Shown: in pieces, positions 1-19,086 of the stretch | How the letters are laid out: each line of letters begins with the position of its first letter | How positions within the stretch are numbered: the stretch's first letter is position 1 | From: a virus | IMG/VR virus record: IMGVR_UViG_3300035698_011202 | Location: 8,232 to 72,231 of that record | Reading direction: 5' to 3' (one strand) | DNA length: 64,000 bases | Notes under the pieces: model-generated | What the model was told of the DNA's origin: nothing | What the model saw: the letters and a program-made list of their open reading frames with translations, nothing else | Database searches by the model: none | Program-made: the position numbers and the translations under genes

Positions 1-2904
1 ATTAAAAGTTGTACTGTAACGTTTCTTAAAGTCTACATGAGAGAAACTATTCAATTTTGCAGAGTCACTAGAATAACTAGAAGTAAACGCGTTACCAGTA
101 GTATCTTGATTAAGGCGTGGTAAGTTACTAGCAAAAGAGTTAAGAGTTTGCCATCTCAAGTAGCTATCTGAACCTGTTGAAATTGCAATCCTATCAGCAG
201 TAACAGCAGTCTCGTTAGCAGACATGTTAAAATAATTGCTAAATATGTAACCATTTTGATGTCTAACTACTAATTCGTTACCTGTAAAATCACCAGACCC
301 ATCGTTGGCATGAAAGCCATCTACAGTGTCTGCGTCTAAGCCAGAGTTAGGCCCGTGATTTACATCATCCCATTGCTTACGCCAATTAGACCATGTCGAG
401 TTATATGCTCTTGTGTAAGATTCCCCGTTTACATAGTGTATCGCATGTTGAGCTACTACATTATTATTGTTACCAAAAGTATTTATTGCGTAGTGTTCTG
501 TAGTAGGATTATTAACATGTGGATCAAATCGATAACCCGATGTTTTACGAGTAGCATTAGGATTTGTAAAAGCTCCATTTCCTGCCCAAGCAAAGTCATC
601 AACATCTCTAGTACCTAGCAAACTAGCAGTACTCGCGCTACTTGCTGTTCCTGTCAAGTCGCCTACAAATACAGCGTGTAAAGAGCACAACGTTGTATGG
701 TCCAGACCATCAGCGAAATAAAAGTCACCATCGCTGTGTAATGCTAAACGTCCTTGTTGCCTACTACCCCAATGAAACGCCAAAGCAGGAGCATAAGCCT
801 TAGAAGACTGACTATTACCTACTCCACCAACCTCGCGAATCTCAACAGCTGCACCTTGATATGAACCTGAAATATCAGTAGAGAAGAACTGATTGTTACC
901 CCCGAACACATTATTCTTATCAATGTAAGCACCTTTAGTGACTGTCTCAGCGTTCCCTTCTAAATTTCCTTTAAATACAGCAGCTGTAACCTTCTTAGTA
1001 GATGGATTATAGTGAAAGTCTGATCCAGAATCATACAGTTGAGAGCTGCCGTTGTGCCACATTATGGAGTAATTAATGTTGTTAGTCTTATTCTCTGATA
1101 CTAAGGCTTTGCTTGCTTGACCATCTAAAGCACCTTTGAAGGTTCCTGCTGTTAGCGTATTATTGATGCCCTCGTAAGTCAGGTCGCTGTGACTATAAAT
1201 AGACCCTCCTACGTTTACGGTAACAGGGTATTTGCCGTTAAAGCTTTGTGCTATATAAGCAAGCTTTGTTGCGGTGTTAGCGTTGCCGGTTGTGGCTTGA
1301 TTCCAAGTTGGGACCGTGCCAAAATTTGAGTAATCTAAATAGTGAGAGCCTTCTTCGCCGTTTAATGTAGTTGCCGCACCTGATGCTCCACCGCCTTGTG
1401 TTGCTTGTGAGAGGGTGAAGTCACCTAGTCGGTTATTAGATGGCATAGTTCCTGATACTTTATTCATAGTTAATTTATAAATTAACTTTGAAGCTGAGGC
1501 AGGAATGTTGTTATCTAGGTACTCTAGCTCTACATACGCGCTACCATAGTAAGTGTTGTTATTTGAACTATAAAATTTACCCGTCACATCCACTTGCGCT
1601 AAATAAGAATAGCTAACCCCATCGTCTACCGATCTTGTTAACGTCAGTTTTAATCTTGGGTGATTATTGTAGGAGTTGGGTCCAGAGTAAGAGTTTGAAA
1701 TCTGCCCTGAAACGCTGACTGTCTCTTGATTGCAAGGGTCTATACTCAGTGACCAAACCTCAGTATTATTGGTTGCTGATACCGGAGTGCTAGGATATAC
1801 CTTGGTTCCACCTGTTGAGCCAGCCACTAGAGGCACTAAAGAAGACAGCACTTCAGGGCTAAATACATTGAGGGATGTTATGGTGTTGGGTGCTAATCCT
1901 CCACCCAATTGCAGATACTCCACTTCAACATCATCGACTACTTTTTTAACAAATTTCAGCATGTCTTGACCATCAGAGCCGCGAATATGTATAACCGATT
2001 TGTCTTTTTCTGAGGTAAGCACTATGCTTTGAGTAGCCCCGTTGGTTCCTGACGAAAGCTCAGGAGTACCCACGGTTAAACTACCTGTAGCTGTTATGTT
2101 TTCAGAAAACACTCTATTAGCAAAAACTTGGTCAATGATAGCATCGCCGTTGACTACCAGATTGCCGTCCACGACTTTAGTGGCCCGTATCCAACTGCCG
2201 CTACCATTAAAGTATCTAGTCTCAGCCCAACCAGCGGCCATAAACAGAGTGACTTCATCCAAAAGAACGCTGTCATTAGGGGTCGCTAACTCTGCCTCAG
2301 CGTTGCTCCAATTTTGGCTGGTAACTAATCTATTATAGACCCCTGCGCCTCGGCTACCGTCAAAGTAATCCACGTCTTTGATGGGGGAGTATCCCGCTAA
2401 AGCGAAACCGATGTTGGTAATGCTTCCGTTGAGGTTATGTATAGAGCAATCCCATCGGTAATTACCTGATGGTTTTATACGTGATTCATAAAACTCCACT
2501 CCGTTCTTGCAGTAGTAGACTCTTATCCCGTTGTTCACAACTGAAAATACGTCGGTGGGTAAACTGGTGTTATTAGCACCTTTACTAGTCCCGCTCTCGT
2601 ATATTACAACTTTTGCGGTGTCATCAACATATATCGCAAAGTCGATAGTGGTGTAACTGGCAGTAGCTACATTATTACTTTGTTTGGAAAGTCCTACCAT
2701 CGATCTAGTGCCCAAAGAACCTGACGCAACACACGTTGAGTAAGACTCTCTTGAGTAAGCGCCTGCGTTCCAAGAGTTTCCACCACTGGTCTTAGTTACA
2801 CTAGCAGCCGATACAACCGTATTGTCGCTGTTGACTAAGTTAAAAACCGAGGCTCCGTCAATAATATCTGATATAGTTGCGGTTCCTACCGCTGTGCGTG
2901 GCAT
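1..2904 (-). CDS. Tail fibre / receptor-binding protein, 3' end runs off the window (not in the ORF track)
   Basis: ATG at 2904 overlaps the upstream TAA (TAATG) and begins MPRTAVGTATISDIIDG. The same frame reads WSNWRKQWDDVNHGPNSGLDADTVDGFH near 310-393, a typical fibre motif, and is still open at position 1 (spot-checked). Confidence 0.85.
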   Translation of the reverse strand, partial: MPRTAVGTATISDIIDGASVFNLVNSDNTVVSAASVTKTSGGNSWNAGAYSRESYSTCVASGSLGTRSMVGLSKQSNNVATASYTTIDFAIYVDDTAKVVIYESGTSKGANNTSLPTDVFSVVNNGIRVYYCKNGVEFYESRIKPSGNYRWDCSIHNLNGSITNIGFALAGYSPIKDVDYFDGSRGAGVYNRLVTSQNWSNAEAELATPNDSVLLDEVTLFMAAGWAETRYFNGSGSWIRATKVVDGNLVVNGDAIIDQVFANRVFSENITATGSLTVGTPELSSGTNGATQSIVLTSEKDKSVIHIRGSDGQDMLKFVKKVVDDVEVEYLQLGGGLAPNTITSLNVFSPEVLSSLVPLVAGSTGGTKVYPSTPVSATNNTEVWSLSIDPCNQETVSVSGQISNSYSGPNSYNNHPRLKLTLTRSVDDGVSYSYLAQVDVTGKFYSSNNNTYYGSAYVELEYLDNNIPASASKLIYKLTMNKVSGTMPSNNRLGDFTLSQATQGGGASGAATTLNGEEGSHYLDYSNFGTVPTWNQATTGNANTATKLAYIAQSFNGKYPVTVNVGGSIYSHSDLTYEGINNTLTAGTFKGALDGQASKALVSENKTNNINYSIMWHNGSSQLYDSGSDFHYNPSTKKVTAAVFKGNLEGNAETVTKGAYIDKNNVFGGNNQFFSTDISGSYQGAAVEIREVGGVGNSQSSKAYAPALAFHWGSRQQGRLALHSDGDFYFADGLDHTTLCSLHAVFVGDLTGTASSASTASLLGTRDVDDFAWAGNGAFTNPNATRKTSGYRFDPHVNNPTTEHYAINTFGNNNNVVAQHAIHYVNGESYTRAYNSTWSNWRKQWDDVNHGPNSGLDADTVDGFHANDGSGDFTGNELVVRHQNGYIFSNYFNMSANETAVTADRIAISTGSDSYLRWQTLNSFASNLPRLNQDTTGNAFTSSYSSDSAKLNSFSHVDFKKRYSTTFN

Positions 2905-3938
2905 TAGGCGACCGAAACAGAACAGCTGTACTGCTCTGAACTACCATTATCTATATCGCCAAACGTCACCACTAAATTTTTACTATTCGTACCCACTGTT
3001 ATTCCGTTTCTAGCCCATAAGTAGGTAACGCCTGATGTAATTTCAGAGCCATCTTTATTGTCATAGACTTTAGCGGTTAACGTCTTTGCGGGACCAGTGT
3101 TATTTCTAAACTCAAAACCGTTAACACTTGAGGTAATAATAACCAGTAATGAAGCCGCGCCGGTATTACCATTTTGGATTCTAACAATGCTGATAATATC
3201 TACAGCATCACCCCCACCTACCACTTTAATTGCCATGGTTTCGGCGTTACCAAAGTTCGCGGCTGAAATAACAATTAAGTCGTTACCAGCAAGACCATCT
3301 ATATCTATAGATTTTGCTTGATTAGCAGCATTTCCCACCGAAAGGGCTGAAAAACTACCTCCGTTTTTACTAACAAAGGCTTGCATGTCATTCACTGTGC
3401 CTTGGATAACTACAGGTATCTTGATGTCGTTAGTAGCACTGGTGTCAGTGGTGCCTGCTTCGGTAAACTTAAAGCTTTGGCGGCTAGGGACCAAACTAAT
3501 AATTGCACCACCGGCACCTATAACAGCCTTAGATAAAGAAATGACTGCCGTAACCAACGTGGCATTACCCGCGCCATTGGTAACAGTAATAGCTACATCT
3601 ACTAAACCTGTTTTATCCGCAGTGTTTAATCCTGAAGGACAGGTAGATACCTTTACCACTTTTTGACCCGCAACTGTTTCAGTAGTCACAGCCCATGTGC
3701 CTGAAGGAGTAAGTGCCACATTATAAGTGCTGTTGGCACCCGTACTGCCAAAAGGTATTCTGTTTGCGCCTAAGTAAACGAACAACTCACATCTAAATAA
3801 ATTCTTTTCTGCATCGGTTACAACACCGGTGGAGCTTGCCGCAAAGGAATGTGACTGGTTTCCAAGTACAACGGAGATGGGGTTAAAACCATCATTAATG
3901 TCGGATATTGTAATTGCGCCTATACTAGTTCTTGCCAT
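2904..3938 (-). CDS. Tail accessory protein, beta-rich and probably Ig-like
   Basis: 344 aa, rich in G/T/S/V, located between the tail tip and fibre genes. Confidence 0.7.
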   Translation of the reverse strand: MARTSIGAITISDINDGFNPISVVLGNQSHSFAASSTGVVTDAEKNLFRCELFVYLGANRIPFGSTGANSTYNVALTPSGTWAVTTETVAGQKVVKVSTCPSGLNTADKTGLVDVAITVTNGAGNATLVTAVISLSKAVIGAGGAIISLVPSRQSFKFTEAGTTDTSATNDIKIPVVIQGTVNDMQAFVSKNGGSFSALSVGNAANQAKSIDIDGLAGNDLIVISAANFGNAETMAIKVVGGGDAVDIISIVRIQNGNTGAASLLVIITSSVNGFEFRNNTGPAKTLTAKVYDNKDGSEITSGVTYLWARNGITVGTNSKNLVVTFGDIDNGSSEQYSCSVSVA

Positions 3939-3956
3939 GATTGTGAAGCTCCGGTG

Positions 3957-6900
3957 TTATATGTTGGTTACAGTGCATGTGAGGTTTAAATCCGCGCCAT
4001 TAGCTACGTCAGTAAAGTCCACTTTTATAGTCTTAAAATTTAGCCCTTGTGGGTCTTCACCATCAGCCGCAAAAAGATTAGTTGAGGGGGATAGGGACAC
4101 GTAATCTCCACTGGTTGTGACGTAAACTACTCGCCCTTCATTAGTCCATTTATACTTATATTCACTGGTGTCATAAGCGGCTACACCGTTAATAAATATA
4201 TTTGCCGTAATACTTTTTAACGCACCTGTGTTGTTTCTAAAGTAGTTTCCGTTGTCACTTAGAAGCACCATTTGAATAGTCTCGCCCTCAGTTAAAGGCA
4301 ACCACGTATAGATGCTGGCATCCGTAATGATGGCTTGTGCCGTCGTATGTCCTGAACTCAATCCTTGCCAGGTTAACTCGCCAGCGGAAGTACTAATATT
4401 TGTACCCACGGCATCCTCGGCATACGCGGTCCATGTATATAATATTTGTTCTGTGCCAAGGGCTGAGGTGAGCCTCCATGTGGTATTGCGGTTGTTATCT
4501 GTAACCAGTCGATACCAGACATGGTAAATTTGGTCTTTGATAACATTGCCAAAGGACAAACTAGTGTTTGAACCTACAGGTTTCGCAATTTCAAAATTAT
4601 CAGACGTGCTGGTTTTAAATTCATAAGTATCAAATTTAGATTCAACTACAGGGGGAGTGACCGTGATGGTGCCATTGCTCGATGTTGTGTTAGGTGCAAC
4701 ATCTGAGGTATCTTTTTGCAATACAACCAAGGTTTGAGTAAATATTTTTCCATACCCTAAGTCTGAGCTAACAGGCTGAATAGTGAATGTGTACGTACCC
4801 GCTGAAAGCGTTTCAAGTGTAACTTCAGCACTGGTAAGGGTTTGCTTCTTTAGAATGTTTCCGGTGAGGGTGAGTAACGTAAATTCGTAGTTAGCTGAAT
4901 CATCCGTCCACGTAATTAAATACTTTCCAAACGCACTGGTTTGTTCAGTGACTACAACGTTCGTAATTAAAGCCTGCACTGCCTCAATCGTTAAGATGTG
5001 GTCGTTTACCGCAAGGGCAGGGTAACGCTCATCAAAGAAATCGTGAAACGCTACACGTACAATTAACTTGCTAGGTAGAAATACTTGTTGTGACGCTTCT
5101 TTGAACTGACTCGCGGTTAAGATTAAGTTGGGTTGAGTTTGAACAGTATTAAATAAAAACGTGTTGTTGCCATCAGAATCATCAAAGATTGAAAAAGTTA
5201 CACTAGATAAATAGCCACCTGTTAATAGGGCTACAGGGAGGCTAGTGACTGACCCCACAACATAGTTAATATCTGCGTAGGCTTTTAATATTCCATTCTT
5301 GAAGCTGCCATACATAAGAGGCAATGCGTTCTCTTCAATTAGGTCAGCCGCCGTGACTCTTCCTAATTCGTAGGTTAGCGAAGTTACCGCGCTTTTAGTG
5401 CCTGACCGCTCAGCGGTGACTCTAAATTCGTACTCTGCAAACTGTAACCCTTTTATCTCAGTAAAATTTTCTGCAGTATTAACAACTCGACCTATCGACG
5501 TACCATTGCTAAAGACTTCTACGCGGTAAGATGTGCCAAACTGACGGTCTTCTTGCTCGTCCCATGAAATCCACGCGCTAACTTGAGTGCCTTGCAAGGT
5601 ATCTACAATAGACTCGTTAACCACAACTAAATTGGTGACTCTCTTTAATGGCGCTAGGAGCTGGAATGAGTACTGAGGTTGAGTAGCTTGCTTGAGTAAA
5701 TCAGCTTCAGTGTGCTTTTCAGAATTAAACTCCACCGCTGAAATAGAAAATAATTCTAGGCCAGTATCATCAGTTGGCTCAATCGATGTGATCCTATAAA
5801 GTTTTGGAAAGCCTATTTGCTTATCAGACCTTGCTCGGTTTCCAATATGCACTACCGGATAATCACCAAGACTACTCGCCGCAGGATAAGGACGACTTAA
5901 CGTAAACTTGCGAAGAGGCAGCCCGACTTCAGTATCTTTTATGGTAATAGTAGCGTCAAAATCTTCCGTAAGTCCTTGCAACGTAAGGCTGTATAAACCG
6001 GATTCAGCAAAGTAAATTGGATCTCTTACCGTCAGCGAAAACGTATCGTTAGATACCACGCGGCCCGACACACCATGTCCCATCACAGGGTCTACTATCG
6101 CTACCACGTCATAAACTTGGAACTGCACACCCGATAAGGGCATGACAAAGTTAATCGATTCAGTTTCAGTTTGCCCAGCAACTAAAAATACCAGCGCCTT
6201 ACGCTCAGCTTCCCACGCATTCGTAGTGCCTAACGACACAAACTCCGTGACATTTAAACCATGACGGTCAATGGCATCTTGGTTTCTTATCTCAGGTAAT
6301 TGCTGCGTCGCATACTCACTGTCTTTATCGATAAAGCTCGTAGATACAGCGTTAATCCGCGCCGACGTACTAGAATAAGAATAACTAAACGGAGACTCAG
6401 AGCTAGTTGATACTGCCATTTCTGCCGTAATAAAGGCCACTGGCACCGTGGGCATGTCGGTGAGTATTTCTATTTCACCATCATCGTTTTCTAAAATTAC
6501 CGAAAACGTAGTGGCTAGAATTTTATTAATGAACTCCATGCCACTCATCCGGTCACTTAATACCGCGTTAAACGTGTATCGAGCTACGCCGGTTTCTGAT
6601 GTATTCGGATTTTGTAAGTCTTTTGCGTTACTGAAAGCGTTATAACCATCTGCGTATTTAGCTTTGTCATAAACTGAATACTTGTTTACTTTCACATTAG
6701 GGTTGTAAGAGATAACACCAAACACTTCGTTAAGTATTAGCTCATTGACTATCCAAAAAGGGTTGTCGGTAGGGAATCGCTCAGGAGCGTACAGGCCATC
6801 CCACGCCGAGCTTTCGTCATAGGTCTTAGTACGTGGGTTGTAATTAGATGGAACGCGGCACAACAAGCCCCTGTAGTCAGCATTCATCGTAGGTAGACCG

Positions 6901-7697
6901 TCAATCTGGTCACCAATCACACCTACCACATGCAACATCGCTGTACTTGGGTGATACTCGAAGCTAGGGGTGTCGTATTTTTTATCTGAAGCCCCATAGC
7001 TGCTCAACTTACGTGTAACCAGCTCGTACCCACGCCAAATTATCGTATCAAAGATGTCTTCATCATCACTGTTAGTGTTTTTAGTCAGCGTAATTTCGTA
7101 CTGGTCACCCGTATTTGAACGCACAGGTAACTCAAACTTTAGGCTTCGGGCAAAACCACTTTGAGGGGTTTTACCTTTTATCCTAATCGCTTTAGTTTCA
7201 GAGTAACCACCACCAATTTTTGACAGCACCACCGTCAAAGTAACTTCGTGCTCTTTCACGCCGTCTTTTGAGTTGCGGTAAAGTGCTTGTGCAACTACCT
7301 GAACGTCAAGCTGGTCCCAACCATCAGGAATACTAGGCGTGGTTTTACTAATGGGCGCACCATGAACAACTTCCTGACCTACCGTTTGATTTGAGGCGGT
7401 GCCGTCAAACAAATATCTAATCGGCGTTTGACCGTCTTCACTCTCAGCAGCGGTTAACGGAGTGCCTGATTCAAAACGAATGAGTAGTTCACTTTCCTCA
7501 AAGTTAGGTTTGCCTTGGCTGTCAAAAATAGGTGTGTCATCAAGGTAGATGTGGTTTAGCTTTTCTTCCGCAGATTCACCCACAATGCCACCAATCTGTC
7601 CTTGAGCAATACCCATCACAAACTCGAAAGCGTCTGTAGAAAACAGATTGCTTCTAGCATTGCTTGGGCCGCCGCCTCCGCTGCCTTTAAATCTCAT
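3957..7697 (-). CDS. Central tail tip / host specificity protein (lambda gpJ-like)
   Basis: ~1246 aa. N-terminal GSGGGG, VPSNYNP and TDNPFWI motifs, FN3-like segments, and position after I/K/L/M-like genes. Confidence 0.85.
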   Translation of the reverse strand: MRFKGSGGGGPSNARSNLFSTDAFEFVMGIAQGQIGGIVGESAEEKLNHIYLDDTPIFDSQGKPNFEESELLIRFESGTPLTAAESEDGQTPIRYLFDGTASNQTVGQEVVHGAPISKTTPSIPDGWDQLDVQVVAQALYRNSKDGVKEHEVTLTVVLSKIGGGYSETKAIRIKGKTPQSGFARSLKFELPVRSNTGDQYEITLTKNTNSDDEDIFDTIIWRGYELVTRKLSSYGASDKKYDTPSFEYHPSTAMLHVVGVIGDQIDGLPTMNADYRGLLCRVPSNYNPRTKTYDESSAWDGLYAPERFPTDNPFWIVNELILNEVFGVISYNPNVKVNKYSVYDKAKYADGYNAFSNAKDLQNPNTSETGVARYTFNAVLSDRMSGMEFINKILATTFSVILENDDGEIEILTDMPTVPVAFITAEMAVSTSSESPFSYSYSSTSARINAVSTSFIDKDSEYATQQLPEIRNQDAIDRHGLNVTEFVSLGTTNAWEAERKALVFLVAGQTETESINFVMPLSGVQFQVYDVVAIVDPVMGHGVSGRVVSNDTFSLTVRDPIYFAESGLYSLTLQGLTEDFDATITIKDTEVGLPLRKFTLSRPYPAASSLGDYPVVHIGNRARSDKQIGFPKLYRITSIEPTDDTGLELFSISAVEFNSEKHTEADLLKQATQPQYSFQLLAPLKRVTNLVVVNESIVDTLQGTQVSAWISWDEQEDRQFGTSYRVEVFSNGTSIGRVVNTAENFTEIKGLQFAEYEFRVTAERSGTKSAVTSLTYELGRVTAADLIEENALPLMYGSFKNGILKAYADINYVVGSVTSLPVALLTGGYLSSVTFSIFDDSDGNNTFLFNTVQTQPNLILTASQFKEASQQVFLPSKLIVRVAFHDFFDERYPALAVNDHILTIEAVQALITNVVVTEQTSAFGKYLITWTDDSANYEFTLLTLTGNILKKQTLTSAEVTLETLSAGTYTFTIQPVSSDLGYGKIFTQTLVVLQKDTSDVAPNTTSSNGTITVTPPVVESKFDTYEFKTSTSDNFEIAKPVGSNTSLSFGNVIKDQIYHVWYRLVTDNNRNTTWRLTSALGTEQILYTWTAYAEDAVGTNISTSAGELTWQGLSSGHTTAQAIITDASIYTWLPLTEGETIQMVLLSDNGNYFRNNTGALKSITANIFINGVAAYDTSEYKYKWTNEGRVVYVTTSGDYVSLSPSTNLFAADGEDPQGLNFKTIKVDFTDVANGADLNLTCTVTNI

Positions 7698-7724
7698 CGT
7701 CAATCCTCATTGTATTTTTACAGC

Positions 7725-8471
7725 CTAGCGGGTAAAAGCGCCGTTCTTAGACTTGCCGCCTAGATAATAATTGTACTCAATATCAAAGTAACTCAATTCC
7801 TCAGCGTTGTGATACAAAGTGTTCCATGAATCCCAGCCTACATCCTGCTCCCATAAGTTCAAAGCGAAGCTGCTTAGCCCTGAATCTCTACCTTTCAACG
7901 ACTCGATGTTGACACTGAACAAGTGACCTCCCCATCTATGCGTCCCAAAAATCATCGGTATCACTGTGCCAGATTGTATGGTGTTGGGGTAACGCCTTGA
8001 TACGCGACTATCTTTGTCTTTTTCTTTCTCCAAAGGGTCTTGTAGCTTTTCAATAATCCCGCCAACCACTAGACCAATACCCATGGAAAAAGCCGCACTC
8101 ATAAACATCTGGCCCGCTGTCAGTATCTCGCCCGCTATAATTGCGTTACCTGTCGTAGCAAAAAAGACCACAGCTACAATTATTAGAATAATCCCGACTA
8201 TAATTCTGGCGTTGGCGTTACCCGCACCCGCCATAGTCATAGGGTTGGTCTTCTTTTTGTAACGCAGCGTCATGGTGGCATCACCGACATGCTTTACTAA
8301 ATCACGCGAGTCTTGGACTTCATCAATCACGCACTCGTAACGGTCCATTACTTTTCGAGGGTCAAAGTCAGGGTGAGTTTTCAGTGCTTCAAGAGCTTGC
8401 TTATACGTAGTCACATCAAAAGATAATTTCTTAGGCTTGCCTTTGAAGCCTACTAACTTAATGGTTACCAT
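7725..8471 (-). CDS. Tail assembly protein (lambda gpI-like)
   Basis: AGAG followed by a hydrophobic segment, then NTIQSGTVIPMIFG. Synteny supports the call. Confidence 0.75.
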   Translation of the reverse strand: MVTIKLVGFKGKPKKLSFDVTTYKQALEALKTHPDFDPRKVMDRYECVIDEVQDSRDLVKHVGDATMTLRYKKKTNPMTMAGAGNANARIIVGIILIIVAVVFFATTGNAIIAGEILTAGQMFMSAAFSMGIGLVVGGIIEKLQDPLEKEKDKDSRVSRRYPNTIQSGTVIPMIFGTHRWGGHLFSVNIESLKGRDSGLSSFALNLWEQDVGWDSWNTLYHNAEELSYFDIEYNYYLGGKSKNGAFTR

Positions 8472-8811
8472 AATGTGTCACCCCTCGATAAACGCTATGT
8501 CCTTCCACGTAATAGTTCGTCACTTCGTCTTTAGAAATAATAATATGTTGCCACTCAGGAACTTGTGAAAATAACTCATAGTCAGACTGACTTAAATTAG
8601 CTGTGCCTCTAGGGTGGCTATGCCATGACGCTGCAATCCTGTCTTCGTATTTATCAATATCATCATACGAAATTTCAAAATTGTCTTCAGGGTCATCGGC
8701 TATATTTTCGACTTCTACGATTTCTCCGCTGGTCAGCACGAAACCACAGCGTTCAATCTTATCGTTCCAGTAAGAACGCCATGCTAGGTCAATAGGGTTT
8801 ATTGAAGCCAT
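8458..8811 (-). CDS. JAB/MPN-domain tail protein (gpK N-terminal-like)
   Basis: ERCG and WHSHPxxxxxxSxxD JAMM motif. Confidence 0.85.
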   Translation of the reverse strand: MASINPIDLAWRSYWNDKIERCGFVLTSGEIVEVENIADDPEDNFEISYDDIDKYEDRIAASWHSHPRGTANLSQSDYELFSQVPEWQHIIISKDEVTNYYVEGHSVYRGVTHYGNH

Positions 8812-9275
8812 TACTTTCTCCTGAAACGCATTTGAGGTGAACGCTTATCTAACACATCCACTATTCCGTCAATACTGCTTAGGCCATCTACAGCTGGGTG
8901 ACGCAGTACTGTCGTCACGCGTAACCGCCAGCGGTGGTCATATTCACTAAGCTCAGAAGGCTTCCCGTACATATGGTGCAGTATCTTGTTGCGGCCCACG
9001 TAGATTCCAATGTGGTTGTCCACAGGCGATTTAAGCAAGTTCATGACCAGTACGTCACCCTTTTGCACCTTGTTAGGGTTGTTGCCTGTGTCAAAGAAAC
9101 CCTCTTGATTAAACAAGTTGTGAAGCAAGTTAAGCTGAGGATTTAAAGACCAAGCATTAGGACGAGCGTGATTTTTTAATTGTAATGAATACTCGTTTTT
9201 ATAGAACTGCTGCACAAGGGTATAGCAATCTTGAGTACCCAATGAATAGGGTAGGTTTAAGTAGTCAATGTACAT
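8811..9275 (-). CDS. NlpC/P60 tail protein (gpK C-terminal-like)
   Basis: DCY, GDVL, HIGIYVG and ILHH motifs. Confidence 0.85.
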   Translation of the reverse strand: MYIDYLNLPYSLGTQDCYTLVQQFYKNEYSLQLKNHARPNAWSLNPQLNLLHNLFNQEGFFDTGNNPNKVQKGDVLVMNLLKSPVDNHIGIYVGRNKILHHMYGKPSELSEYDHRWRLRVTTVLRHPAVDGLSSIDGIVDVLDKRSPQMRFRRK

Positions 9276-9276
9276 A

Positions 9277-9765
9277 TTAGACTCTCACCGATGAAAACTC
9301 AGGCTGCGCGTATCGACGAGGTGGGAAAACAATTTGGTTTCCGTCACTCGGCATTCTTAGCTCAGCCGTTATCATATGCTCTGTAATATTCGTTACATGC
9401 GACACAATAAAGACTCGTCGAGTATAGGTGCCCAACGATAGTTCTTGAGGTAGCACTCGGTACTCAACAACATCTGCGCCTTCTAGGATACGTCTTGACA
9501 CGTAGTAGGATAGGGCACCATCTTGGTTAGGTAAGTTAAGTTTAGGGCGAGATACTTCACCTGAACTGTTTTGCTGAAAACCAGCAATAAGAAAAGGATT
9601 ACTTGTCCACGTTTCACCTAGCCACGTTATAGTTGGACCATCGGTAAGGCGAAAATGAATAGGCGTAGAATCTAAGTCTAGGATTTTTATATATAGGAAT
9701 TTTATACGTTCAGAGGACGTAAGAGATTTAATCTCAGTGGTTAAACTGGGCGAAAGTGTTTTCAT
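9277..9765 (-). CDS. Minor tail protein (gpL-like)
   Basis: GFQQNSSGEVSRPKL and LEGADV motifs plus synteny. Start placed at the ATG of the TTGACGATG motif. Confidence 0.75.
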   Translation of the reverse strand: MKTLSPSLTTEIKSLTSSERIKFLYIKILDLDSTPIHFRLTDGPTITWLGETWTSNPFLIAGFQQNSSGEVSRPKLNLPNQDGALSYYVSRRILEGADVVEYRVLPQELSLGTYTRRVFIVSHVTNITEHMITAELRMPSDGNQIVFPPRRYAQPEFSSVRV

Positions 9766-9811
9766 CGTCAACTCCAAATTTTATGCTTGGAGTTTAATAC
9801 AAAGCGCAGAC

Positions 9812-9838
9812 AAAAAAAACCCCGCACTAGGCAGGGTT
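9812..9838 (-). terminator. Intrinsic terminator closing the candidate sRNA
   Basis: 8-bp GC-rich stem, 5-nt loop, run of 8 T on the minus strand. Confidence 0.85.
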
Positions 9839-9890
9839 GATACTAAATTGACGATGAGAAATGGCATCTGGCGACGCCATCAAACGAGAT
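9812..9890 (-). ncRNA. Candidate small regulatory RNA antisense to the shared translation-start motif
   Basis: Minus strand reads hairpin AUGGCGUC-GCCA-GAUGCCAU (9880-9861), single-stranded UUCUCAUCGUCAAUUUAGUAUC (9860-9839), then terminator AACCCUGC-CUAGU-GCGGGGUU with U-tail. Both stems contain a G-U pair that only works on this strand. 5' end is approximate. Confidence 0.7.
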
Positions 9891-9892
9891 AA

Positions 9893-9920
9893 ATATTATC
9901 ATAATGATAACGTGCGTCAA
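9893..9920 (-). promoter_or_regulatory. Sigma70-like promoter for the candidate sRNA
   Basis: TTGACG (9920-9915), 16-bp spacer, TAATAT (9898-9893) preceded by TGn (extended -10). Confidence 0.6.
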
Positions 9921-9945
9921 CAGGTTTATTCTGTACATGAATATT

Positions 9946-10335
9946 TTATGAGACTGATACCTGTTTCAGAGACACCTGTATGCCCGTGTGTACACCATCA
10001 GCCCCTGTCAAGCCTTCAGGGATAACAAGCGGCTGCATAAATTTGACAACTACACTGCCATATCTCTCATGTTCAAACAAAAAGGAATCATGCAGCTCAT
10101 GAGCAAGATAGAAGTCTTCTAGTGCTTGTAACGAATATCTTTTCTGAAACGCAGTTAATACTTTAGTGGGTTCAAAAAACTTCATTCCTGCAAACGTTAA
10201 CGTAAACTTTTTTGCAACCGGCGTGTGAGACTTAACCGTATAATCCCAATTATTTCCTAGCGTTACCGCCTTACCCCTTGCGGGGTACTCGACAGATACT
10301 TTGTGCATTGGAAAGTTGAATACTTGTAGTGCCAT
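9946..10335 (-). CDS. Distal tail protein (gpM-like)
   Basis: 129 aa directly after the tape measure gene, with an LEDFYLAH...FLF pattern. Confidence 0.7.
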   Translation of the reverse strand: MALQVFNFPMHKVSVEYPARGKAVTLGNNWDYTVKSHTPVAKKFTLTFAGMKFFEPTKVLTAFQKRYSLQALEDFYLAHELHDSFLFEHERYGSVVVKFMQPLVIPEGLTGADGVHTGIQVSLKQVSVS

Positions 10336-13300
10336 TAGAGCGTTCCCATATTAATTCGTTTAACTAGTTGCTTGGTTACGCCGCCTCGCGTGAGGTTATC
10401 AGCAATGATATGTACCACGTCATTCGCTCCCAGACTGGATGGCATCTGCTCAGGGCTGACCACGTAGACATTGACTTCTTTGCTACCACTGTCTTTTTGT
10501 TGAGCCATCGGATTGCCGCCTAGCTTCTCGGCCTGACGGTCAATTAGATTGGGATCAGCTGAGTTGAGAGCTTTCACCGTATCGATACCTAATGACTGCA
10601 CCGCTTTTCTACGAAGCACAAACTCGCCCTTGGCTACTTTGGCAAAAGTGGAATCACGGGTAGACATACCACGCGTTATCTCACCGCCACCCGCGTAGCT
10701 TCCTGCGAACTGTTCGCCTCCGTTCCAAGCATTCATCCCCCCATTCATATTAGTTGAGGGGTTTCCAGCCATAGTTGTTCCTGTGGGGCTAAACATACCC
10801 CCAAAGCCTGCGCCCGCCACCATTTGCAAGATACCTTTTAGCAACGCGTTAGCCGCAATCTCAGACGCTATATCCAACATGCTTTCTAAGATACTGATAG
10901 TAAACGCTTTAAAAGCCTCGCTACCTGAAAGAGTGCCGTTTGCAAACGCTGTAAAAGCCTGCGCAAAATTGGAGGCTAAATCCTGAGCAACATCATTCAA
11001 GCCTTTCATGGCTTCTGTCAACGGGTCAAAGTTATCTAGGCTTTGCATCAACAAGTCGTTGATACCTCTAAAGCCTCCGGCGACATTTTCAAGTATGCCC
11101 TCGGGAGTATCCTGCCCATTTTTAGGTACGTAAGTAGTATCGGTTGTTTCATCACCTAGTGGATTAAACCCTTCACCTGTCATAGCAGCAAACAACCTAC
11201 GGCGTACATCATCATCAAACTGATTAGCTTTTAAATCACGTACTATTGTGCCTAGCTCGTCGGATGTCTTCTTATTGTCAAGGTTAGTGTCTGACTGATT
11301 TTTATTATCATCGGCTAAATCTTTTTGGGCTTGGGCTTGCTTGACTATTTGCTCTTTAATAGTTTTGTTCAAGCCACTTCCATCAATACCACTATCAACG
11401 GCTAAGTCAGGATTACTGGCAACAAGAGATTCAAGGTATTCGATTAAAACTTTCCTAGCCCTAATTGCCTCAGTGGTTAAGTCTATTTCAGCTTTTGCTC
11501 TTTCTTCTCTTTTATCAATTAACTGCTGAGTGACTAGCTGTTGCTCTTCAAGAGAAGCCTCTTTAAATTGATTAGTGTACTTATCCCCACCTGTGGTGAT
11601 TTTTTGTAGTTCACTTATCCGAGCTTCAAAAACCTCTTCAGTTTGTTTCAAGGCAATAACCTCAGCCTTCGCCAACTCTGAAGCTTTTTCTATCTTAGAT
11701 TCTTGAGCCTCGGTAAAAGACTTTATAAGCCTAAGCCCATCTGTCTCTTCGTAGTCACGGTCTTTTGTATCCAGATTTGTGTTTTTACCGTCCAAGGATT
11801 TAGCAAACTTTTGAGTGAACAAGTTCTTGTCTATAATTAACTGGGTTTCAGCTTTTGAGCTTATTGCTTCTTGTTGCGTCAAACGAGTAGCAACACCTTT
11901 GCTTTGTGGGCCTTGGTCGTTAAGACGCCCAGCAAAATCTTCCTTTTCCCTAGCAATTGCGCTTATTTTAGCCTGTAGCAATTCCTTTTCATCTGCCAAC
12001 ACGTTTAATCGTTCAGCTGACGCAGAGGTTGATAGTTCTTTATTGATCGTGCCCATCTGAGCATCAAGAATAGCACCTCGGTTTTTGAAATCTAAGTCCT
12101 TAGCAAACTTGGCTTCTGTAGCGATATTCTTAAAACCCACCGATAAAGAAAGAATAATTGCATTAACTACTTCATTGAATCCTGTGCTCACAAAGGCTTC
12201 CTGAAGCTCTTGTGGCGATAAGCCATTGCCTGTTGCGGTTGATTCAATGATTTTATTATTGTCGTTGTTTTTAGGGTCAAGACCACTTTGTATTAAGACT
12301 TCTCTTACCTGATTGCTAGTCAGCTCAGGGTTACTGAGAAGATTTTGTATTTGTAGTGGGTCTACATTTTGAGCCTCTAAAACTTTACGCAACTCGTCAC
12401 CTGTCAGTGGTCTATCCCGCAAGGTAGTTTTAAAGTTATTCGTTAGCCTGTCTAACTCCGCTAATACCGTAGTCTCATTTTCTCCCATTGACGTGTAAGC
12501 TTTTAAATCGTCACGCTCATCTAGTTTTAGTACGTTTTGATAGACAGAAGAAATGTTTGACGTAAAGGCTTTTGTCGCTTGCTCTAATTGCAACATGCCC
12601 CCTGTCACCGCATCATCACCTAACGTTGTTAGCTCACGACGATTAATAACGTTGGCTTCTGAGTTAGTTAAATTATTTTCGAACCCTGTCTGAGATGTAG
12701 AGATGGCGAAAATAATACTCTGTAAAGCATCCGTAAAATCTTTACCGTACTTTTTAAACACATCTCCGTTTAAGCCTGTTTCAGTTGCATATTGTTGTAC
12801 ATTGCCTTCACGAATAAATACATCTCTTAGATTACCTTCTACGCTGAGTATTTTATCTAAAATACTCTTACCTTCAGCTACCTTGTCTTTATCAACGTTA
12901 CCGTCTTTGTCCGTAAAAGCTAACTGGTTGTATTGTTGAGTCAAGCCTGTGACAATTTTAGAGGTATCTCGCAACGAGGTTGTAAAGTCGCCAAGTTCAA
13001 TTCTACCGCTGCCGACTGGTCCTCTCTCGCTACGATCCCTTTCTCCCGTATTACCCGTGAGTTTGCGCGAAGCTTTCTCAAAAATAGCCACTGCACTGTT
13101 TTCACCTTTCAGTGGTAGCTGTTCCTGAATAATAGCGTTTGAAGTTCTAGCTGATGCTTTGCCGCCATCAACAAGGGCGAGGTCTAGGCTCGCGTTTTCC
13201 TCATCCTTAAAAGTTTTAACTGCGTCAAATAACCCTTTATAATCCTTTACCGAATCGGGGATATATAAACCCAACGCTTTAAACTCAGAGTTAACGCGCT

Positions 13301-16300
13301 TAATAGTTGAGGCCAACATGTCCGTGTCTTTACTTAACTTTACTTCGTTGGTAGCAATATTTTGCAGCGTTTTATTCAAAGCTTTTATGCTGTCTCGACT
13401 GGCTATCTGCCTAGATTTAGCATCGTTTTCTTCAGCCGTGGCCTTGTCTACTACATCCTTTAGTTTTGCATCGTCATTAAAGCTATCTGCCAAGTACGCA
13501 ATGCCTCCGAGTAAACCACCTATGGCAGCGAGCACCAGCGTTACTTTTCCTGCTAAAAATCTTAGCGCAACAGTTAGTGCTGACGTGCCCATAGCCGCTC
13601 TTCTGGCTGTGTTTAAGCTTGAGCGCGTGTTGTCCCTTTGTAATCGATTACTGTTCAAAGGACGTCTATCACCATCCCCTGAAACAGTTGAGCCAATCCC
13701 TAAGATAGCCGCAATAGCTCTGCCACCTGCAGCCAAGCCTATAGCAAGTTTTCCGAATGACACCACAAGGGCACCAATAGCAGCGCCCCCCGCAATAGAG
13801 CCAATAACCGATAACGCACCACCTACATCTTTTAAGCCGCTCAACATATCCGCAAGCGTAGAAACAAGAGCTGTTCCAGACTTCAAAAGCGGGTCGAACG
13901 CTTCCGAGGTGACCGAGAAAAACGTAGAGCCTAATCGCGCAAACTGGTTCGCAAATGATTCCATCTGAATAGCGTTAGCTCTTGCCGCTGCACCACCAAT
14001 CTCCATCTTCTCAGCCAGCTCATCAGCCACATCGATGTTGTTAGCAAACGCACCAAACGCCGCTGCCGCTCGAACTTGCATCGTTCGCATAGCATCGGTA
14101 ACAGTAAATCCACTTTGAGAAAGCTTTTTAAGAACAGGAATTAAACCATTAGTCGATATGTCTAAGTCACTCATACTTAAACCAAGTAACTGTGTAGTCC
14201 TTACAAACTCTTCTGAGGGCTTTTGTAAGGCGATCAATATCTGACGTAAGCCTGTGCCTAGCGTTGAGCCTGAACGTATGCCTGAGTTAGCCATGGCTCC
14301 TAGAGCTGCAACTGTTTCTTCAAAGCTGACGTTAGACTGAGCTGCGATGTTACCTGCATACTGTAGACCCAACGCAAGCTTGTTTAAGTTTAGTTTTGAT
14401 GAGTTAACCGCCGTCGTTAACTTGTCAGCAATGTTACCCATGTCTCTTGCATCACGGTTAAATATGCCCATTGTTGACGTAGCTAAGTCTACCGCTTCAC
14501 TTAGATTTGCACCTACCGCTGTAGCAAACAGCGTAATACCTTCTATCGAGTCTGCTATCTGGTCTTTACCAAATCCTGCTTGTCCAAGTACGACCGCTGC
14601 TTGTGTGACTTCTAGCGCCGTGAACTTAGTTTTTTCTGATACCGCAACTAACGTTTTACTTAGCCCTTGCATCTCAGTATTGGTCAAAGCCACAATAGAT
14701 TGTAGCTGTTTCATCTCCTTTTCGAGCTGAACCATGAACTGACCAGATTGAGTAATAAGACTAATGCCTGTTCCCATAACTGCATAGTTTCTAAGCAACT
14801 GAGCTTGCTGCTTAAACATACCCGCGCCATTGTCCATTCGGCGTCTTTCGTCAGCCGCTAGAAGCGATCGGGCTGAACTAGTCTGAGCGCGACCTATTTC
14901 TGTTTGAGCAGGGCGGTAGTTTTGCTTAATCTTGATTTGCTCTAAGCGTCGCTCAATCCGTTTTAGCTCAGCGGTGGCTTGGTCAAAAACTACCGATGTA
15001 GCTGATGAACTTTTAATTAACCCTTTGACGACATTAGCGTAGTCACCTGCGGATTTTTTTAATTCGTTGAGTTCAGATGAACTTAAACCAACTAGTGATT
15101 TATTCAGTCCCTCTTTACCGGCCCGAGCGAAACGGTCACCGGCTAGGCGATTCTCGGTTTCTCTTAAAAGGGTGGTGTTGTTGTCACGCTGCAACTTTAA
15201 ATCATTCTTAAATTGGGTGCTGTTTGACGCATCAATCTGAGCTTTGTTTTTTTGCTGCTGAGTTTCTACTCGCTTGTCGCTTTGACGAATACTGGCAAGT
15301 TGTGTATCTATTTGTTTGCGTAAGTCAGAGCCTTCTGGCGCATTCTTTACTTGCTGGTTAACCGTTCTCGCAAACTCTTTTAGGTTGTTTCGTATTTGAG
15401 TCAGCTCACCCTTGCTTTTCATGTTTATGCTTTGGTCACCTAGACCACGCGCAAACCTAGCACCTTCCGATACGCGAGAGTCAGCCTTTGACCTTGCAGA
15501 GACTTCTTGTTTAAGATCAGACGAGTTCGCTCTTGATAACTTACGTTTGGCTTTTTCTGGTTCACTGTTATAAAAGACTTTAGCGGCGGCGTTACTTTCT
15601 CGCTGCGTCACAATGCCTTCTTTTAATGCGCTTATCTGTTGCTTGCGTAAATCTATCTGGCTACGCAGCTGCGTTCCTTCAGGAGCATTTTTTACTTGCG
15701 CGTTAACCACTTTCTCATACGCGCTCACATCTCTTGAAAGCCTTCTTAGCTCAGCAGGAGATTTGGCCCCAAGGTCTAATCTAGCCGCACCCCTAACAAC
15801 TCTTTTCTTACCTTCGCGGGCATTAATATCAGCCGCCAATCTAACCGCGCTAGTTTTGGTAATACTCGTGCTGTTAGCGGCTCTAACCTTCTCGTCCTGC
15901 TTTCGCTTGGCCTTCGCTTCAGGACTATTGAAAACCCGCTTTTGCTCAGCGATAAACGCTTTGCGAGAGCCTGTTTCTTTATCTAAGGCCGCAAGTTGGT
16001 TCTCAAATAAACCTTTAAGACGGGCAGAAGACTTGGCAAAAGCCGTGTCCCCCGTATTGTTAGCTGCGTTGTTAGCTTTGGTGGCACCCTTTAAATAAAC
16101 AGCCGTAGCCTGACGTTGCGCTTTTAGGTCCGACGCAGACATGGCACTCGTTCGTGCGTCTGAGAACTTAGATTCTTTTTTTGCAAGGTTAGGGTTTCGT
16201 CTAATTTCTTCGTTTAGAAATGAACGAGTACTTTGAGAAATAGCTCTTTTTATAGCCGGAGAAGAAACCATCTTCCCTGTAATTTCACTCACCCCTTTAG

Positions 16301-16694
16301 TCAGACTATCCGTGTACCGTTTTACTAAAGCAGGGTCATTTAACTTGCTGGCTAAATTGCCTAAGTTTCCTATAATCCCTTGGGCTTCAGATTGCAGCGT
16401 AGCTACGCCGCCCCGAGAAATCGCCAATGCTCTGTTTAAAGGCGCAAGCTCTGCAGCATTCAAAGCATCAATAGGTTTTCGACTCTTAGCCGACATGCCG
16501 CTAGTCAGCTTTTCGTTAGCCTTAACGACATTATTTATGTCGGTCATAGATTGCTTGACAGTACCCATGCTTAGTTCAAGGGCTTTTTGTAGCTTCTCTA
16601 ATTTTTTAGTCGCTTCGTCAACGGCTTTTTGACCGCTTTTATCAAATTTTACTTTTAATACGGTAGTACGGATAGAACTGCTGTTATCACTCAT
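10335..16694 (-). CDS. Tail tape measure protein
   Basis: ~2119 aa, helical and A/K/L-rich, with a TP901-like core (TKFTALEV...GIRSGSTLGTGLR). Confidence 0.92.
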   Translation of the reverse strand: MSDNSSSIRTTVLKVKFDKSGQKAVDEATKKLEKLQKALELSMGTVKQSMTDINNVVKANEKLTSGMSAKSRKPIDALNAAELAPLNRALAISRGGVATLQSEAQGIIGNLGNLASKLNDPALVKRYTDSLTKGVSEITGKMVSSPAIKRAISQSTRSFLNEEIRRNPNLAKKESKFSDARTSAMSASDLKAQRQATAVYLKGATKANNAANNTGDTAFAKSSARLKGLFENQLAALDKETGSRKAFIAEQKRVFNSPEAKAKRKQDEKVRAANSTSITKTSAVRLAADINAREGKKRVVRGAARLDLGAKSPAELRRLSRDVSAYEKVVNAQVKNAPEGTQLRSQIDLRKQQISALKEGIVTQRESNAAAKVFYNSEPEKAKRKLSRANSSDLKQEVSARSKADSRVSEGARFARGLGDQSINMKSKGELTQIRNNLKEFARTVNQQVKNAPEGSDLRKQIDTQLASIRQSDKRVETQQQKNKAQIDASNSTQFKNDLKLQRDNNTTLLRETENRLAGDRFARAGKEGLNKSLVGLSSSELNELKKSAGDYANVVKGLIKSSSATSVVFDQATAELKRIERRLEQIKIKQNYRPAQTEIGRAQTSSARSLLAADERRRMDNGAGMFKQQAQLLRNYAVMGTGISLITQSGQFMVQLEKEMKQLQSIVALTNTEMQGLSKTLVAVSEKTKFTALEVTQAAVVLGQAGFGKDQIADSIEGITLFATAVGANLSEAVDLATSTMGIFNRDARDMGNIADKLTTAVNSSKLNLNKLALGLQYAGNIAAQSNVSFEETVAALGAMANSGIRSGSTLGTGLRQILIALQKPSEEFVRTTQLLGLSMSDLDISTNGLIPVLKKLSQSGFTVTDAMRTMQVRAAAAFGAFANNIDVADELAEKMEIGGAAARANAIQMESFANQFARLGSTFFSVTSEAFDPLLKSGTALVSTLADMLSGLKDVGGALSVIGSIAGGAAIGALVVSFGKLAIGLAAGGRAIAAILGIGSTVSGDGDRRPLNSNRLQRDNTRSSLNTARRAAMGTSALTVALRFLAGKVTLVLAAIGGLLGGIAYLADSFNDDAKLKDVVDKATAEENDAKSRQIASRDSIKALNKTLQNIATNEVKLSKDTDMLASTIKRVNSEFKALGLYIPDSVKDYKGLFDAVKTFKDEENASLDLALVDGGKASARTSNAIIQEQLPLKGENSAVAIFEKASRKLTGNTGERDRSERGPVGSGRIELGDFTTSLRDTSKIVTGLTQQYNQLAFTDKDGNVDKDKVAEGKSILDKILSVEGNLRDVFIREGNVQQYATETGLNGDVFKKYGKDFTDALQSIIFAISTSQTGFENNLTNSEANVINRRELTTLGDDAVTGGMLQLEQATKAFTSNISSVYQNVLKLDERDDLKAYTSMGENETTVLAELDRLTNNFKTTLRDRPLTGDELRKVLEAQNVDPLQIQNLLSNPELTSNQVREVLIQSGLDPKNNDNNKIIESTATGNGLSPQELQEAFVSTGFNEVVNAIILSLSVGFKNIATEAKFAKDLDFKNRGAILDAQMGTINKELSTSASAERLNVLADEKELLQAKISAIAREKEDFAGRLNDQGPQSKGVATRLTQQEAISSKAETQLIIDKNLFTQKFAKSLDGKNTNLDTKDRDYEETDGLRLIKSFTEAQESKIEKASELAKAEVIALKQTEEVFEARISELQKITTGGDKYTNQFKEASLEEQQLVTQQLIDKREERAKAEIDLTTEAIRARKVLIEYLESLVASNPDLAVDSGIDGSGLNKTIKEQIVKQAQAQKDLADDNKNQSDTNLDNKKTSDELGTIVRDLKANQFDDDVRRRLFAAMTGEGFNPLGDETTDTTYVPKNGQDTPEGILENVAGGFRGINDLLMQSLDNFDPLTEAMKGLNDVAQDLASNFAQAFTAFANGTLSGSEAFKAFTISILESMLDIASEIAANALLKGILQMVAGAGFGGMFSPTGTTMAGNPSTNMNGGMNAWNGGEQFAGSYAGGGEITRGMSTRDSTFAKVAKGEFVLRRKAVQSLGIDTVKALNSADPNLIDRQAEKLGGNPMAQQKDSGSKEVNVYVVSPEQMPSSLGANDVVHIIADNLTRGGVTKQLVKRINMGTL

Positions 16695-16710
16695 CGTCAA
16701 TCTCCAAATT

Positions 16711-17109
16711 TTACGACAAGCCGCGTATCATGGCTTGCGCTTGTGCAATATTCTGAGGTTCATCTTGCTTTCGGACAGTTACAGGCTTTTCACTCTCACC
16801 ACCCATTATGGCAACAGCTACTTTCATAAGGGACTCTTGAAACTGTCCGAACTTAACGGTCTGTAAGCCTACAACAAGCTTTATCTTTAATTGTATATCA
16901 GAATATGCCAGCGACCAGAAGACAGCCTCTAGTTGACTCGGGACAGAATCAAACACAAAACACATTTGGTCTTCAAATTCTAAGCCCGAATACCAGACGT
17001 TGAAGGTTTCTAAATACTTTTCTTGATTGCCTCTGTCCTTTTTATCGAGCTTGCTATCGACTTCTCCCAAGCTCGTAAAAAAAAATACGATATATGGCTC
17101 TCTACCCAA
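16711..17109 (-). CDS. Tail assembly chaperone, gpT-like part (probably reached by -1 frameshift)
   Basis: Overlaps the gpG-like ORF in the -1 frame across a T9 run at 17077-17085. Confidence 0.7.
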   Translation of the reverse strand: MGREPYIVFFFTSLGEVDSKLDKKDRGNQEKYLETFNVWYSGLEFEDQMCFVFDSVPSQLEAVFWSLAYSDIQLKIKLVVGLQTVKFGQFQESLMKVAVAIMGGESEKPVTVRKQDEPQNIAQAQAMIRGLS

Positions 17110-17372
17110 TCAAGAAAGTCGATCAAATGGTCCGTGTCTATTTCTAATTCATTAATAGCAAACTCTTCGGTTATTTTTCCATATTGGTCACGCTTAGATA
17201 GACACAATAAAAGTATGTCTAGTCGAACGGTAGCGTTGGTAAAGGTTTCTGAAATTTGTTGTGGGTTTTCGAATATGGCACTTAATGTGTTGAGCAATCC
17301 AAAAGACATAAACAGTTCTTTTTGTGTATCACCACAGGTCAAAGTAAAGCGAGGGGCTAGTTTATCAGTCAT
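17010..17372 (-). CDS. Tail assembly chaperone (gpG-like)
   Basis: Lies between the tail tube and tape measure genes, with a slippery run near its 3' end. Confidence 0.75.
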   Translation of the reverse strand: MTDKLAPRFTLTCGDTQKELFMSFGLLNTLSAIFENPQQISETFTNATVRLDILLLCLSKRDQYGKITEEFAINELEIDTDHLIDFLDWVESHISYFFLRAWEKSIASSIKRTEAIKKSI

Positions 17373-17394
17373 CGTCAATCCAAATTATAAGTAT

Positions 17395-17420: not shown

Positions 17421-17440
17421 ATACTATCAGGTATAGGTTG

Positions 17441-19085: not shown

Positions 19086-19086
19086 A

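Follow-up and report, generated by a model that had tools for sequence, protein, structure and literature searches.

What does a gap of 180 bp among the tail genes of a marine phage hold, and why does it carry, in reverse, a sequence with which about a third of the genes of the phage begin? The stretch concerned is a window of 64,000 nucleotides (nt), corresponding to bases 8232-72231 of the 72,231-base virus record IMGVR_UViG_3300035698_011202, which is estimated to be 89% complete. The gap extends from the stop of a 129-amino-acid (aa) open reading frame (ORF) at 9946 to the ATG of a gpL-like gene at 9765 (PF05100). An original prediction, made from the sequence alone, placed a gap of about 180 bp here, in agreement with the length measured, and proposed that minus-strand positions 9920-9812 encode a small RNA (sRNA). 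The conserved RNA element is considered real and, as far as sequence features can tell, it is very probably an sRNA gene. The best reading is that of a trans-acting sRNA directed against a genome-wide start tag, and this is held to be reasonably probable.

Read on the minus strand, the unit consists of a sigma-70-like promoter, a 5′ stem-loop (helix 1), a linker that would serve as the seed for pairing, and an intrinsic terminator (Table 1). The predicted promoter, TTGACG-N16-TAATAT with an extended -10, was recovered at 9920-9893 by a promoter scan, with 9/12 consensus matches and a TG at 9901-9900 before the -10. The promoter match alone is weak evidence, as promoter-like sites in 1-20000 are rarer (20) than in shuffled sequence (mean 34.8). 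The hairpin, linker and U8 terminator of the original prediction are likewise present, with a hairpin of 9 bp and a linker of 21 nt in place of the 8 bp and 22 nt first given. The predicted sRNA of ~72-79 nt has a minimum free energy (MFE) of -24.9 kcal/mol (z score -3.38), and none of 200 shuffles was as stable. Pairing of the linker within the folded RNA had been suggested as a check; both the MFE and the centroid structure leave it free of pairing, and its mean probability of being unpaired, P(unpaired), is 0.89. The linker contains the core CAUCGUCAA (9856-9848), which lies within a 17-nt stretch, UUUCUCAUCGUCAAUUU, at 9861-9845. The argument that the G.U pairs of the stems would become A-C mismatches on the plus strand holds, and these pairs and the T-run both place the RNA on the minus strand. 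The anatomy supports a putative RNA read from the minus strand between this promoter and terminator, in which an antisense linker is left exposed.

Reverse-complemented, the linker core CAUCGUCAA gives TTGACGATG, a sequence with 27 copies in the window against 0.32 expected. None of 100 shuffles reached this number, and the match of the linker to it is therefore more than chance. The sequence lies flush on the ATG of 23/66 predicted genes, rising to 27/66 when up to one mismatch is allowed. The other exact copies comprise one within the capsid gene, two orphans (35648 and 35697) and the sRNA copy itself. All copies but one (26/27) are co-oriented with the genes, the sRNA copy at 9848-9856 being the sole one that runs against them. 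The conserved block ATTGACGATGA is preceded by GGA or GGAG, giving the consensus tag aaaTTtGGAaTTGACGATGa. By position and sequence, the tag is a start-associated sequence (SAS) spanning the Shine-Dalgarno region, the spacer and the start codon. It is found on structural and non-structural genes alike, including those for tape-measure, capsid, tail and gpJ-like proteins, and typically on the first gene after an intergenic gap. The possibility that the tag is an extended pairing site for the tail of 16S ribosomal RNA (rRNA) was set aside by inspection against the rRNA sequence.

The complementarity reaches well past the core. The stretches of 17, 17 and 16 nt listed in the original prediction are exact (Table 1). 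The three sites were right and the scope of the list was too small, as the complement is a genome-wide start tag present at 23/66 gene starts. Predicted duplexes of -16 kcal/mol or below were obtained for 27/66 initiation regions, compared with 3.2% of 3000 random sense 40-mers. The seeds of the window and of phage B, a relative described below, extend further to the coding side (CUCAUCGUCAAUUU), so that the GGA of the tag is reachable by wobble pairing only; wobble pairing with the GGA of tagged starts had been proposed for the window, and the two seeds agree with it.

Relatives were found from the gpL-like protein and from a 14-mer scan of viral contigs, giving five homologues in four lineages. 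The relatives of the gpL-like protein, P0002, P0004 and P0005, are 85%, 77% and 46% identical to it; no relative was found in the genome contigs, none in the viral contigs with P0005, and the metagenome scan gave the phage B contig only. Phage B is made up of contigs G001 and G002, which abut within the tape-measure gene on the window map. Its DNA is 69-80% identical to the window and its gpL-like protein 75% identical. The 14-mer scan returned at least 114 loci, mostly due to chance, and a T-run screen of the matches listed left nine, among which L070, L072 and L075 are true relatives leading to G004, G005 and G006. G004 (80,544 bases) and G005 (83,406 bases) are complete records that use the same tag. 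The cultured Pseudoalteromonas phage KB12-38 (MF098558.1) has a gpL that is 38% identical. One further contig, L009/L010, is identical to the window and uninformative.

Phage B, G004, G005 and KB12-38 each have a gap of 167-220 nt before the gpL-like gene. Promoter-like hexamers, a 5′ hairpin, an anti-tag stretch and a terminator are present in all four gaps on the strand of the tail genes. The unit of promoter, hairpin, seed and terminator is thus at the same place in 5/5 related records that have the gap, the window included, and the terminator is present in 5/5 homologues. An automatic five-way alignment recovered the terminator only, because the 5′ hairpins cannot be aligned across lineages. 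In the more distant fragment L019/G003, of high guanine-cytosine content and with a gpL 34% identical, the gpM-like gene overlaps the gpL-like one without a gap, and TTGACGATG is absent; the unit is therefore specific to a clade.

The comparison of the window with phage B points to selection on the RNA. The linker and terminator hairpin are identical at 41/42 positions against 69.4% in the surrounding 5.5 kb (binomial P 4e-6). Conservation of the linker in relatives, the second check suggested, is seen here in 20/21 of its bases, and the terminator hairpin keeps 21/21. Helix 1 has diverged at about the background rate, with 15/22 positions identical. The six substitutions in its stem form three compensatory pairs, 3/9 pairs thus differing at both positions, and neither G.U pair is lost. 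Across the two stems, 17/17 pairs are kept and none is broken.

That the RNA and the tag function as a pair is argued most strongly by their co-variation across the four lineages. In the window and phage B the seed CAUCGUCAA stands against the tag TTGACGATG, and in G004 the seed AUCGUCAAUUUCCAAAU stands against TTTGGAAATTGACGAT(G/ATG). In the 80,000 bases covered for the latter phage, 32 sites have a perfect complement of at least 13 nt, and the three longest reach 19, 18 and 18 nt. The tag of KB12-38, of which GGATTGACAATATG is one instance, follows the pattern GGATTGAC(A)nnATG and has a spacer 2 nt longer. Of the GGATTGA copies in this phage, 36/37 follow the direction of the genes; the exception is the sRNA copy in the gap. 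Its seed, CAUAUUGUCAAUCC, is the exact complement of the consensus GGATTGACAATATG and not of the variant GGATTGACTATG carried by its own gpL gene, which favours action in trans. In each lineage, as judged from the sequences compared, the seed tracks that phage's own variant of the tag.

This co-variation also bears on whether there is an RNA gene at all. The plus-strand copy of the tag could be a relic, the start of a mini-ORF or a DNA site for a protein, with the hairpins terminating transcription of the upstream tail genes. The plus strand does read TTGACGATG followed by a 12-codon ORF, and the tape-measure block could plausibly be followed by a terminator. Against this, the plus-strand copy in the window lacks the GGA of the tag, and the T-run and G.U pairs fit the minus strand only. 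Helix 1, situated ahead of the terminator, takes no part in termination, yet its pairing is kept through six substitutions, and the seed tracks the tag in four lineages. This explanation is considered very improbable. The mini-ORF was also inspected as a candidate gene; its peptides in the window, phage B and KB12-38 (12, 5 and 10 codons) appear unrelated on our own reading, and a plus-strand gene was rejected because they are not conserved.

Table 1. Positions of the predicted sRNA unit, its complementary sites and associated features in the window, with the promoter-like pairs of related phages.
Feature	Position	Strand	Details
Promoter, sigma-70-like	9893-9920	-	-35 TTGACG 9920-9915; 16-nt spacer; TAATAT 9898-9893; extended -10 TGaTAATAT 9901-9893
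5′ stem-loop	9860-9881	-	9 bp including 2 G.U; loop GCCA; from the predicted fold
Seed/linker	9839-9859	-	21 nt
Intrinsic terminator	9812-9838	-	hairpin 9838-9818, 8 pairs (5 G-C, one U.G); U8 at 9819-9812
5′ leader of gpL-like gene	9763-9795	-	hairpin AAACUCCAA (9795-9787)/UUGGAGUU (9777-9770) covers Shine-Dalgarno; tag TTGACGATG 9771-9763
17-nt perfect complement	35645-35661	+	longest; orphan tag with no gene after it, inside operator-like repeat region
17-nt perfect complement	44016-44032	+	over start of 59-aa gene 44024-44203; predicted duplex -25.3 kcal/mol, best of 66 initiation regions
16-nt perfect complement	54905-54920	+	over start of pyrophosphohydrolase-like gene 54914-55531
Non-coding stretch downstream of primase-like gene	31190-31382	+	3.4 tandem 30-bp units, three with GACGATGAG; terminator 31354-31382
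ProQ/FinO-domain gene, 163 aa	59113-59604	+	PF04352, E 3.9e-10, 40.1 bits against a cut-off of 27
Promoter-like pair, phage B	equivalent position		TTGCTT-N16-TAGTAT
Promoter-like pair, KB12-38	equivalent position		TTGACT-N17-TACTAT
Promoter-like pair, G004	equivalent position		TTGACA-N17-TAATAT
Promoter-like pair, G005	equivalent position		TTGACA-N17-TAGTAT

A possible protein partner is encoded by the same phages. PF04352 scores over its cut-off in 4/4 of the genomes searched that carry the unit (G000, G004, G005 and KB12-38; near-complete). The ProQ protein of the window has weak sequence matches in the PDB to NMB1681 (E 0.04) and to the N-terminal domain of ProQ (E 0.15). FinO/ProQ proteins are described as binding terminator hairpins with their 3′ tails (PMC9977716). 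The predicted sRNA, with its terminator stem-loop and 3′ tail, has the shape of such ligands, and the phage ProQ/FinO protein is a candidate chaperone for it.

The position of the unit, always directly upstream of the gpL-like gene, allows for a role in cis. In late messenger RNA (mRNA) that has read through the terminator, the anti-tag stretch would pair with the gpL tag and, acting with the Shine-Dalgarno hairpin at 9795-9770, reduce translation of gpL along with that of the tail-tip genes coupled to it. The read-through fold is stable in the window (-45 kcal/mol, z -4.24) and in phage B (-50.5 kcal/mol, z -5.2). In phage B the hairpin in the 5′ leader of the gpL-like gene survives a C-to-U change, one of its pairs becoming G.U. 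On the other side, the seed of KB12-38 fits the consensus and not the gpL tag, so that pairing in cis is shorter than with other genes. In every phage the sites of longest complementarity are tens of kb distant, among them one of 23 nt in phage B. A strong terminator stands between the two partners, so that read-through RNAs would be scarce in the absence of antitermination, and the promoter-like hexamers are at the same place in 5/5 homologues. Action in cis, for which the promoter-like sequence would be incidental or would feed the same structure, is regarded as unlikely; it could coexist with action in trans, as for the c4 RNA of P1, which sits upstream of its target on one transcript.

Several points weigh against the trans-acting reading. 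In the window and in phage B, the MFE and centroid structures of the 144-nt read-through RNA pair UCAUCGUCA with UGACGAUGA around the terminator, as expected for a cis role. Just five homologues in four lineages were found, and the shuffle control for covariation is powerless with two sequences (78/500). The promoter calls are consensus matches only, and the -35 of phage B, on our own reading, agrees with the consensus at just 3/6 positions. The seed is open in phage B (mean P(unpaired) 0.88) and only partly so in G004, G005 and KB12-38 (0.54, 0.48 and 0.39, with the RNA ends assumed). The direction of regulation, repression or activation, is inferred from position only.

The sites of longest complementarity raise the question of whether a real sRNA could have another job, as a sponge or partner of another RNA, such as the non-coding RNA downstream of the primase-like gene, or as a stabiliser or activator of tag-bearing mRNAs. 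In the former case it could control replication or the switch between lysis and lysogeny through that non-coding RNA. The longest complement is at an orphan site without a gene in three phages: 17 nt at 35645 in the window, 23 nt covering the whole linker at G002 15205-15227 in phage B, and 19 nt at 9386-9404 in G004. The orphan sites of phage B and G004 and the GACGATGAG repeats of the window, each a 10-nt complement to the seed, are just downstream of the primase-like gene. These stretches (window 31190-31382; L134/G002 15160-15330; L141/G004 9270-9410) are followed by a terminator and short origin-like repeats. The stretch in the window is possibly a decoy or target RNA, or a set of origin iterons. 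Against another job, most of the complementary sites are true gene starts (23/27 exact copies in the window), pairing at a start codon is normally inhibitory according to established knowledge, and the repeats of the window could be plain iterons. This explanation is given a low probability, below that of the cis role.

For the trans-acting sRNA, the following course of events is proposed. The host RNA polymerase would start at TTGACG-N16-TGaTAATAT and stop at the U8 terminator. The seed would then pair in trans with the tagged initiation regions, at the Shine-Dalgarno part, spacer and start codon, of ~23-27 first cistrons. Such pairing across the start codon by sRNAs normally inhibits; here it would block binding of the 30S subunit and lower translation, and translationally coupled downstream genes would be reduced along with the tagged cistrons. 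The phage ProQ/FinO protein would probably hold the terminator and 3′ tail and aid formation of the duplex. One RNA could probably switch off the translation of much of the phage at once.

When the RNA would be made is suggested by its setting. The window phage is considered temperate because of an integrase fragment and because KB12-38 has an annotated integrase and excisionase. The fragment (63625-63999, minus strand) is the C-terminal part of a tyrosine-integrase-like protein, cut off by the contig end and encoded opposite to the adjoining genes; the integrase of KB12-38 shares its strand with the genes around it. A unit with its own promoter and terminator inside the late operon of a temperate phage is the layout of a ‘moron’. 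As the present unit resembles one, the sRNA may be made in lysogens, as a second lock or immunity determinant; alternatively, it may be made during infection to time translation.

A wider proposal, which is tentative and clearly less probable than trans action itself, is an RNA-based master switch of three co-evolving parts: the tag, the sRNA with ProQ/FinO, and a decoy RNA. A private tag would mark the first cistron of nearly every translation unit. The sRNA and ProQ/FinO would silence the phage proteome in the prophage, or that of a superinfecting relative with the same tag. The non-coding decoy RNA by the replication origin, with the best-matching site or sites, could release the block.

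Among known systems RocR/RocC of Legionella pneumophila comes closest in function, and for the target the nearest description is that of the SAS in Cluster K mycobacteriophages. As described in PMC9977716, RocC/RocR represses several mRNAs in trans, with four mRNA targets given for RocR. The predicted sRNA resembles RocR in being short, with a terminator hairpin and an exposed region for trans pairing at initiation regions. A FinO/ProQ-domain protein is encoded together with the sRNA unit (4/4 genomes), as in both RocR/RocC and FinP/FinO, although the sequence similarity of the phage protein to the solved FinO-domain proteins is weak (E 0.04-0.15). In contrast to the four targets described for RocR, the tag is on ~23-27 gene starts in the window, about a third of the phage genes, and the present system is phage-borne and self-directed. 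It also differs from FinP of F-like plasmids, a cis antisense RNA with a single target, as its many targets are elsewhere in the genome; the layout is RocR-like. A base-pairing sRNA regulon with a FinO-type partner is thus already known, and it is the scope and the self-direction that are new.

The Cluster K SAS was reported (Pope et al. 2011, PMC3203893) as an asymmetric conserved motif within a few bases of many start codons, very rarely reversed, whose conservation extends past the Shine-Dalgarno core that it contains. The same account notes a single reverse copy in K1 phages and leaves open whether RNA or protein binds the motif, and the role was still termed unknown in a 2024 paper (PMC11373665). 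The present tag is alike in its position near many starts (23/66 exact), in its co-orientation (26/27) and in having a single reverse copy off the gene starts, at 9848-9856 in the window and at 58682-58694 in the Cluster K phage Adephagia. The motif differs, being GGGATAGGAGCCC in Cluster K and TTGACGATG with an upstream GGA here, as do the host phylum and phage lineage. The tag here is also on structural genes, unlike the Cluster K motif, which is placed at non-structural genes only in the account cited. The two are analogous, not homologous.

Adephagia (JF704105) has 16 forward SAS copies and one reverse copy, and the latter is found where genes 92 and 93 are separated by 432 unannotated nt. 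Read in the sense of the genes, 58639-58729 (L138 1240-1330) is predicted to form a hairpin of ~19 bp (centroid) with the anti-SAS core in its apical loop (MFE -39.9 kcal/mol, z -2.96). Late transcription of Adephagia appears to begin between genes 92 and 93, according to PMC11373665. The anti-SAS there is in the loop of a sense-strand hairpin, whereas here it is in a promoter-to-terminator unit on the opposite strand. In the K2 phage ZoeJ, the only close reverse SAS (31723-31735, one mismatch) is mid-genome. The terms ‘antisense’ and ‘sRNA’ do not occur in a 2025 survey of 188 Cluster K genomes (PMC12699233). A literature search found no paper that links start-associated sequences to an sRNA.

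A third comparison is with the antisense immunity RNAs of phages, to which P22 sar, P4 CI and lambda OOP belong. The c4 RNA of P1 and P7 is described as another (PMC12197685). Like the c4-type RNAs, the predicted sRNA is a structured phage RNA of ~70-80 nt with a complement around the ribosome-binding site, where those RNAs block translation. They are tied to lysogeny and heteroimmunity, and the window phage is temperate. They differ in acting on one operon, that of an antirepressor, at one or two sites, whereas the sequence complementary to the present RNA tags a third of the genome. The two show no relationship by sequence or by Rfam family.

The wider setting is that of a phage with two arms. 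Minus-strand genes at 1-28141 encode head and tail functions, among them the terminase, the capsid, a 2119-aa tape-measure and gpL-, gpK-, gpI- and gpJ-like tail-tip proteins. From 28153 on, plus-strand genes encode replication and accessory functions. The ORF that borders the gap (9946-10335) comes after the tape-measure gene. The naming of the genes on either side as gpM-like and gpL-like stood for the second (PF05100); the first is gpM-like by position only, its 129-aa product matching phrog_34212, of unknown function, and no Pfam family. An Rfam scan of the whole window found no family reaching its gathering score, and the best local match by E-value at the locus was Trp_leader (28.5 bits against a cut-off of 41). 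A transfer RNA search found none, and a nucleotide search of the phage collection with the locus gave no match. A look-up of RNA sequencing runs listed none.

Some further observations concern the tag and its surroundings. The exact TTGACGATG copy at 22276-22284 (minus strand), within the capsid-protein gene at 21548-22759, could be an internal start or a chance retention. The two orphan tags of the window are within a regulatory-looking region (35566-35765), together with a tandem repeat of 35 bp and five palindromic boxes of the form GTGTGACAC(C). A similar pair of sites is present in KB12-38, at 41498 and 41549, beside a divergently transcribed gene. The palindrome GGGGA(C/G)TCCCC occurs at 11 sites against 0.34 expected, between 31695 and 63099 and all in the plus-strand arm. 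It is often 15-25 nt upstream of a start tag and may be a hairpin, a processing site or a site for a protein.

Start-associated sequences have been known in mycobacteriophages since 2011 without an identified binding partner, and a specific candidate is now at hand for the analogous tag of a marine phage. The candidate partner is a conserved small RNA whose seed changes with the tag, and the candidate chaperone is the phage ProQ/FinO protein. The proposal is directly testable, as KB12-38 and its Pseudoalteromonas host are in culture, and RNA-seq data for Adephagia have been deposited (GSE271014). If the trans-acting reading is true, one RNA would gate the translation of about a third of the phage genes, plus the genes coupled to them. 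This would be a form of global self-control, possibly an RNA-based immunity, of a mode that was not found described in the literature searched. If the three-part switch is also true, the reverse SAS of Cluster K would be the same idea evolved independently, and would answer what the SAS is for.

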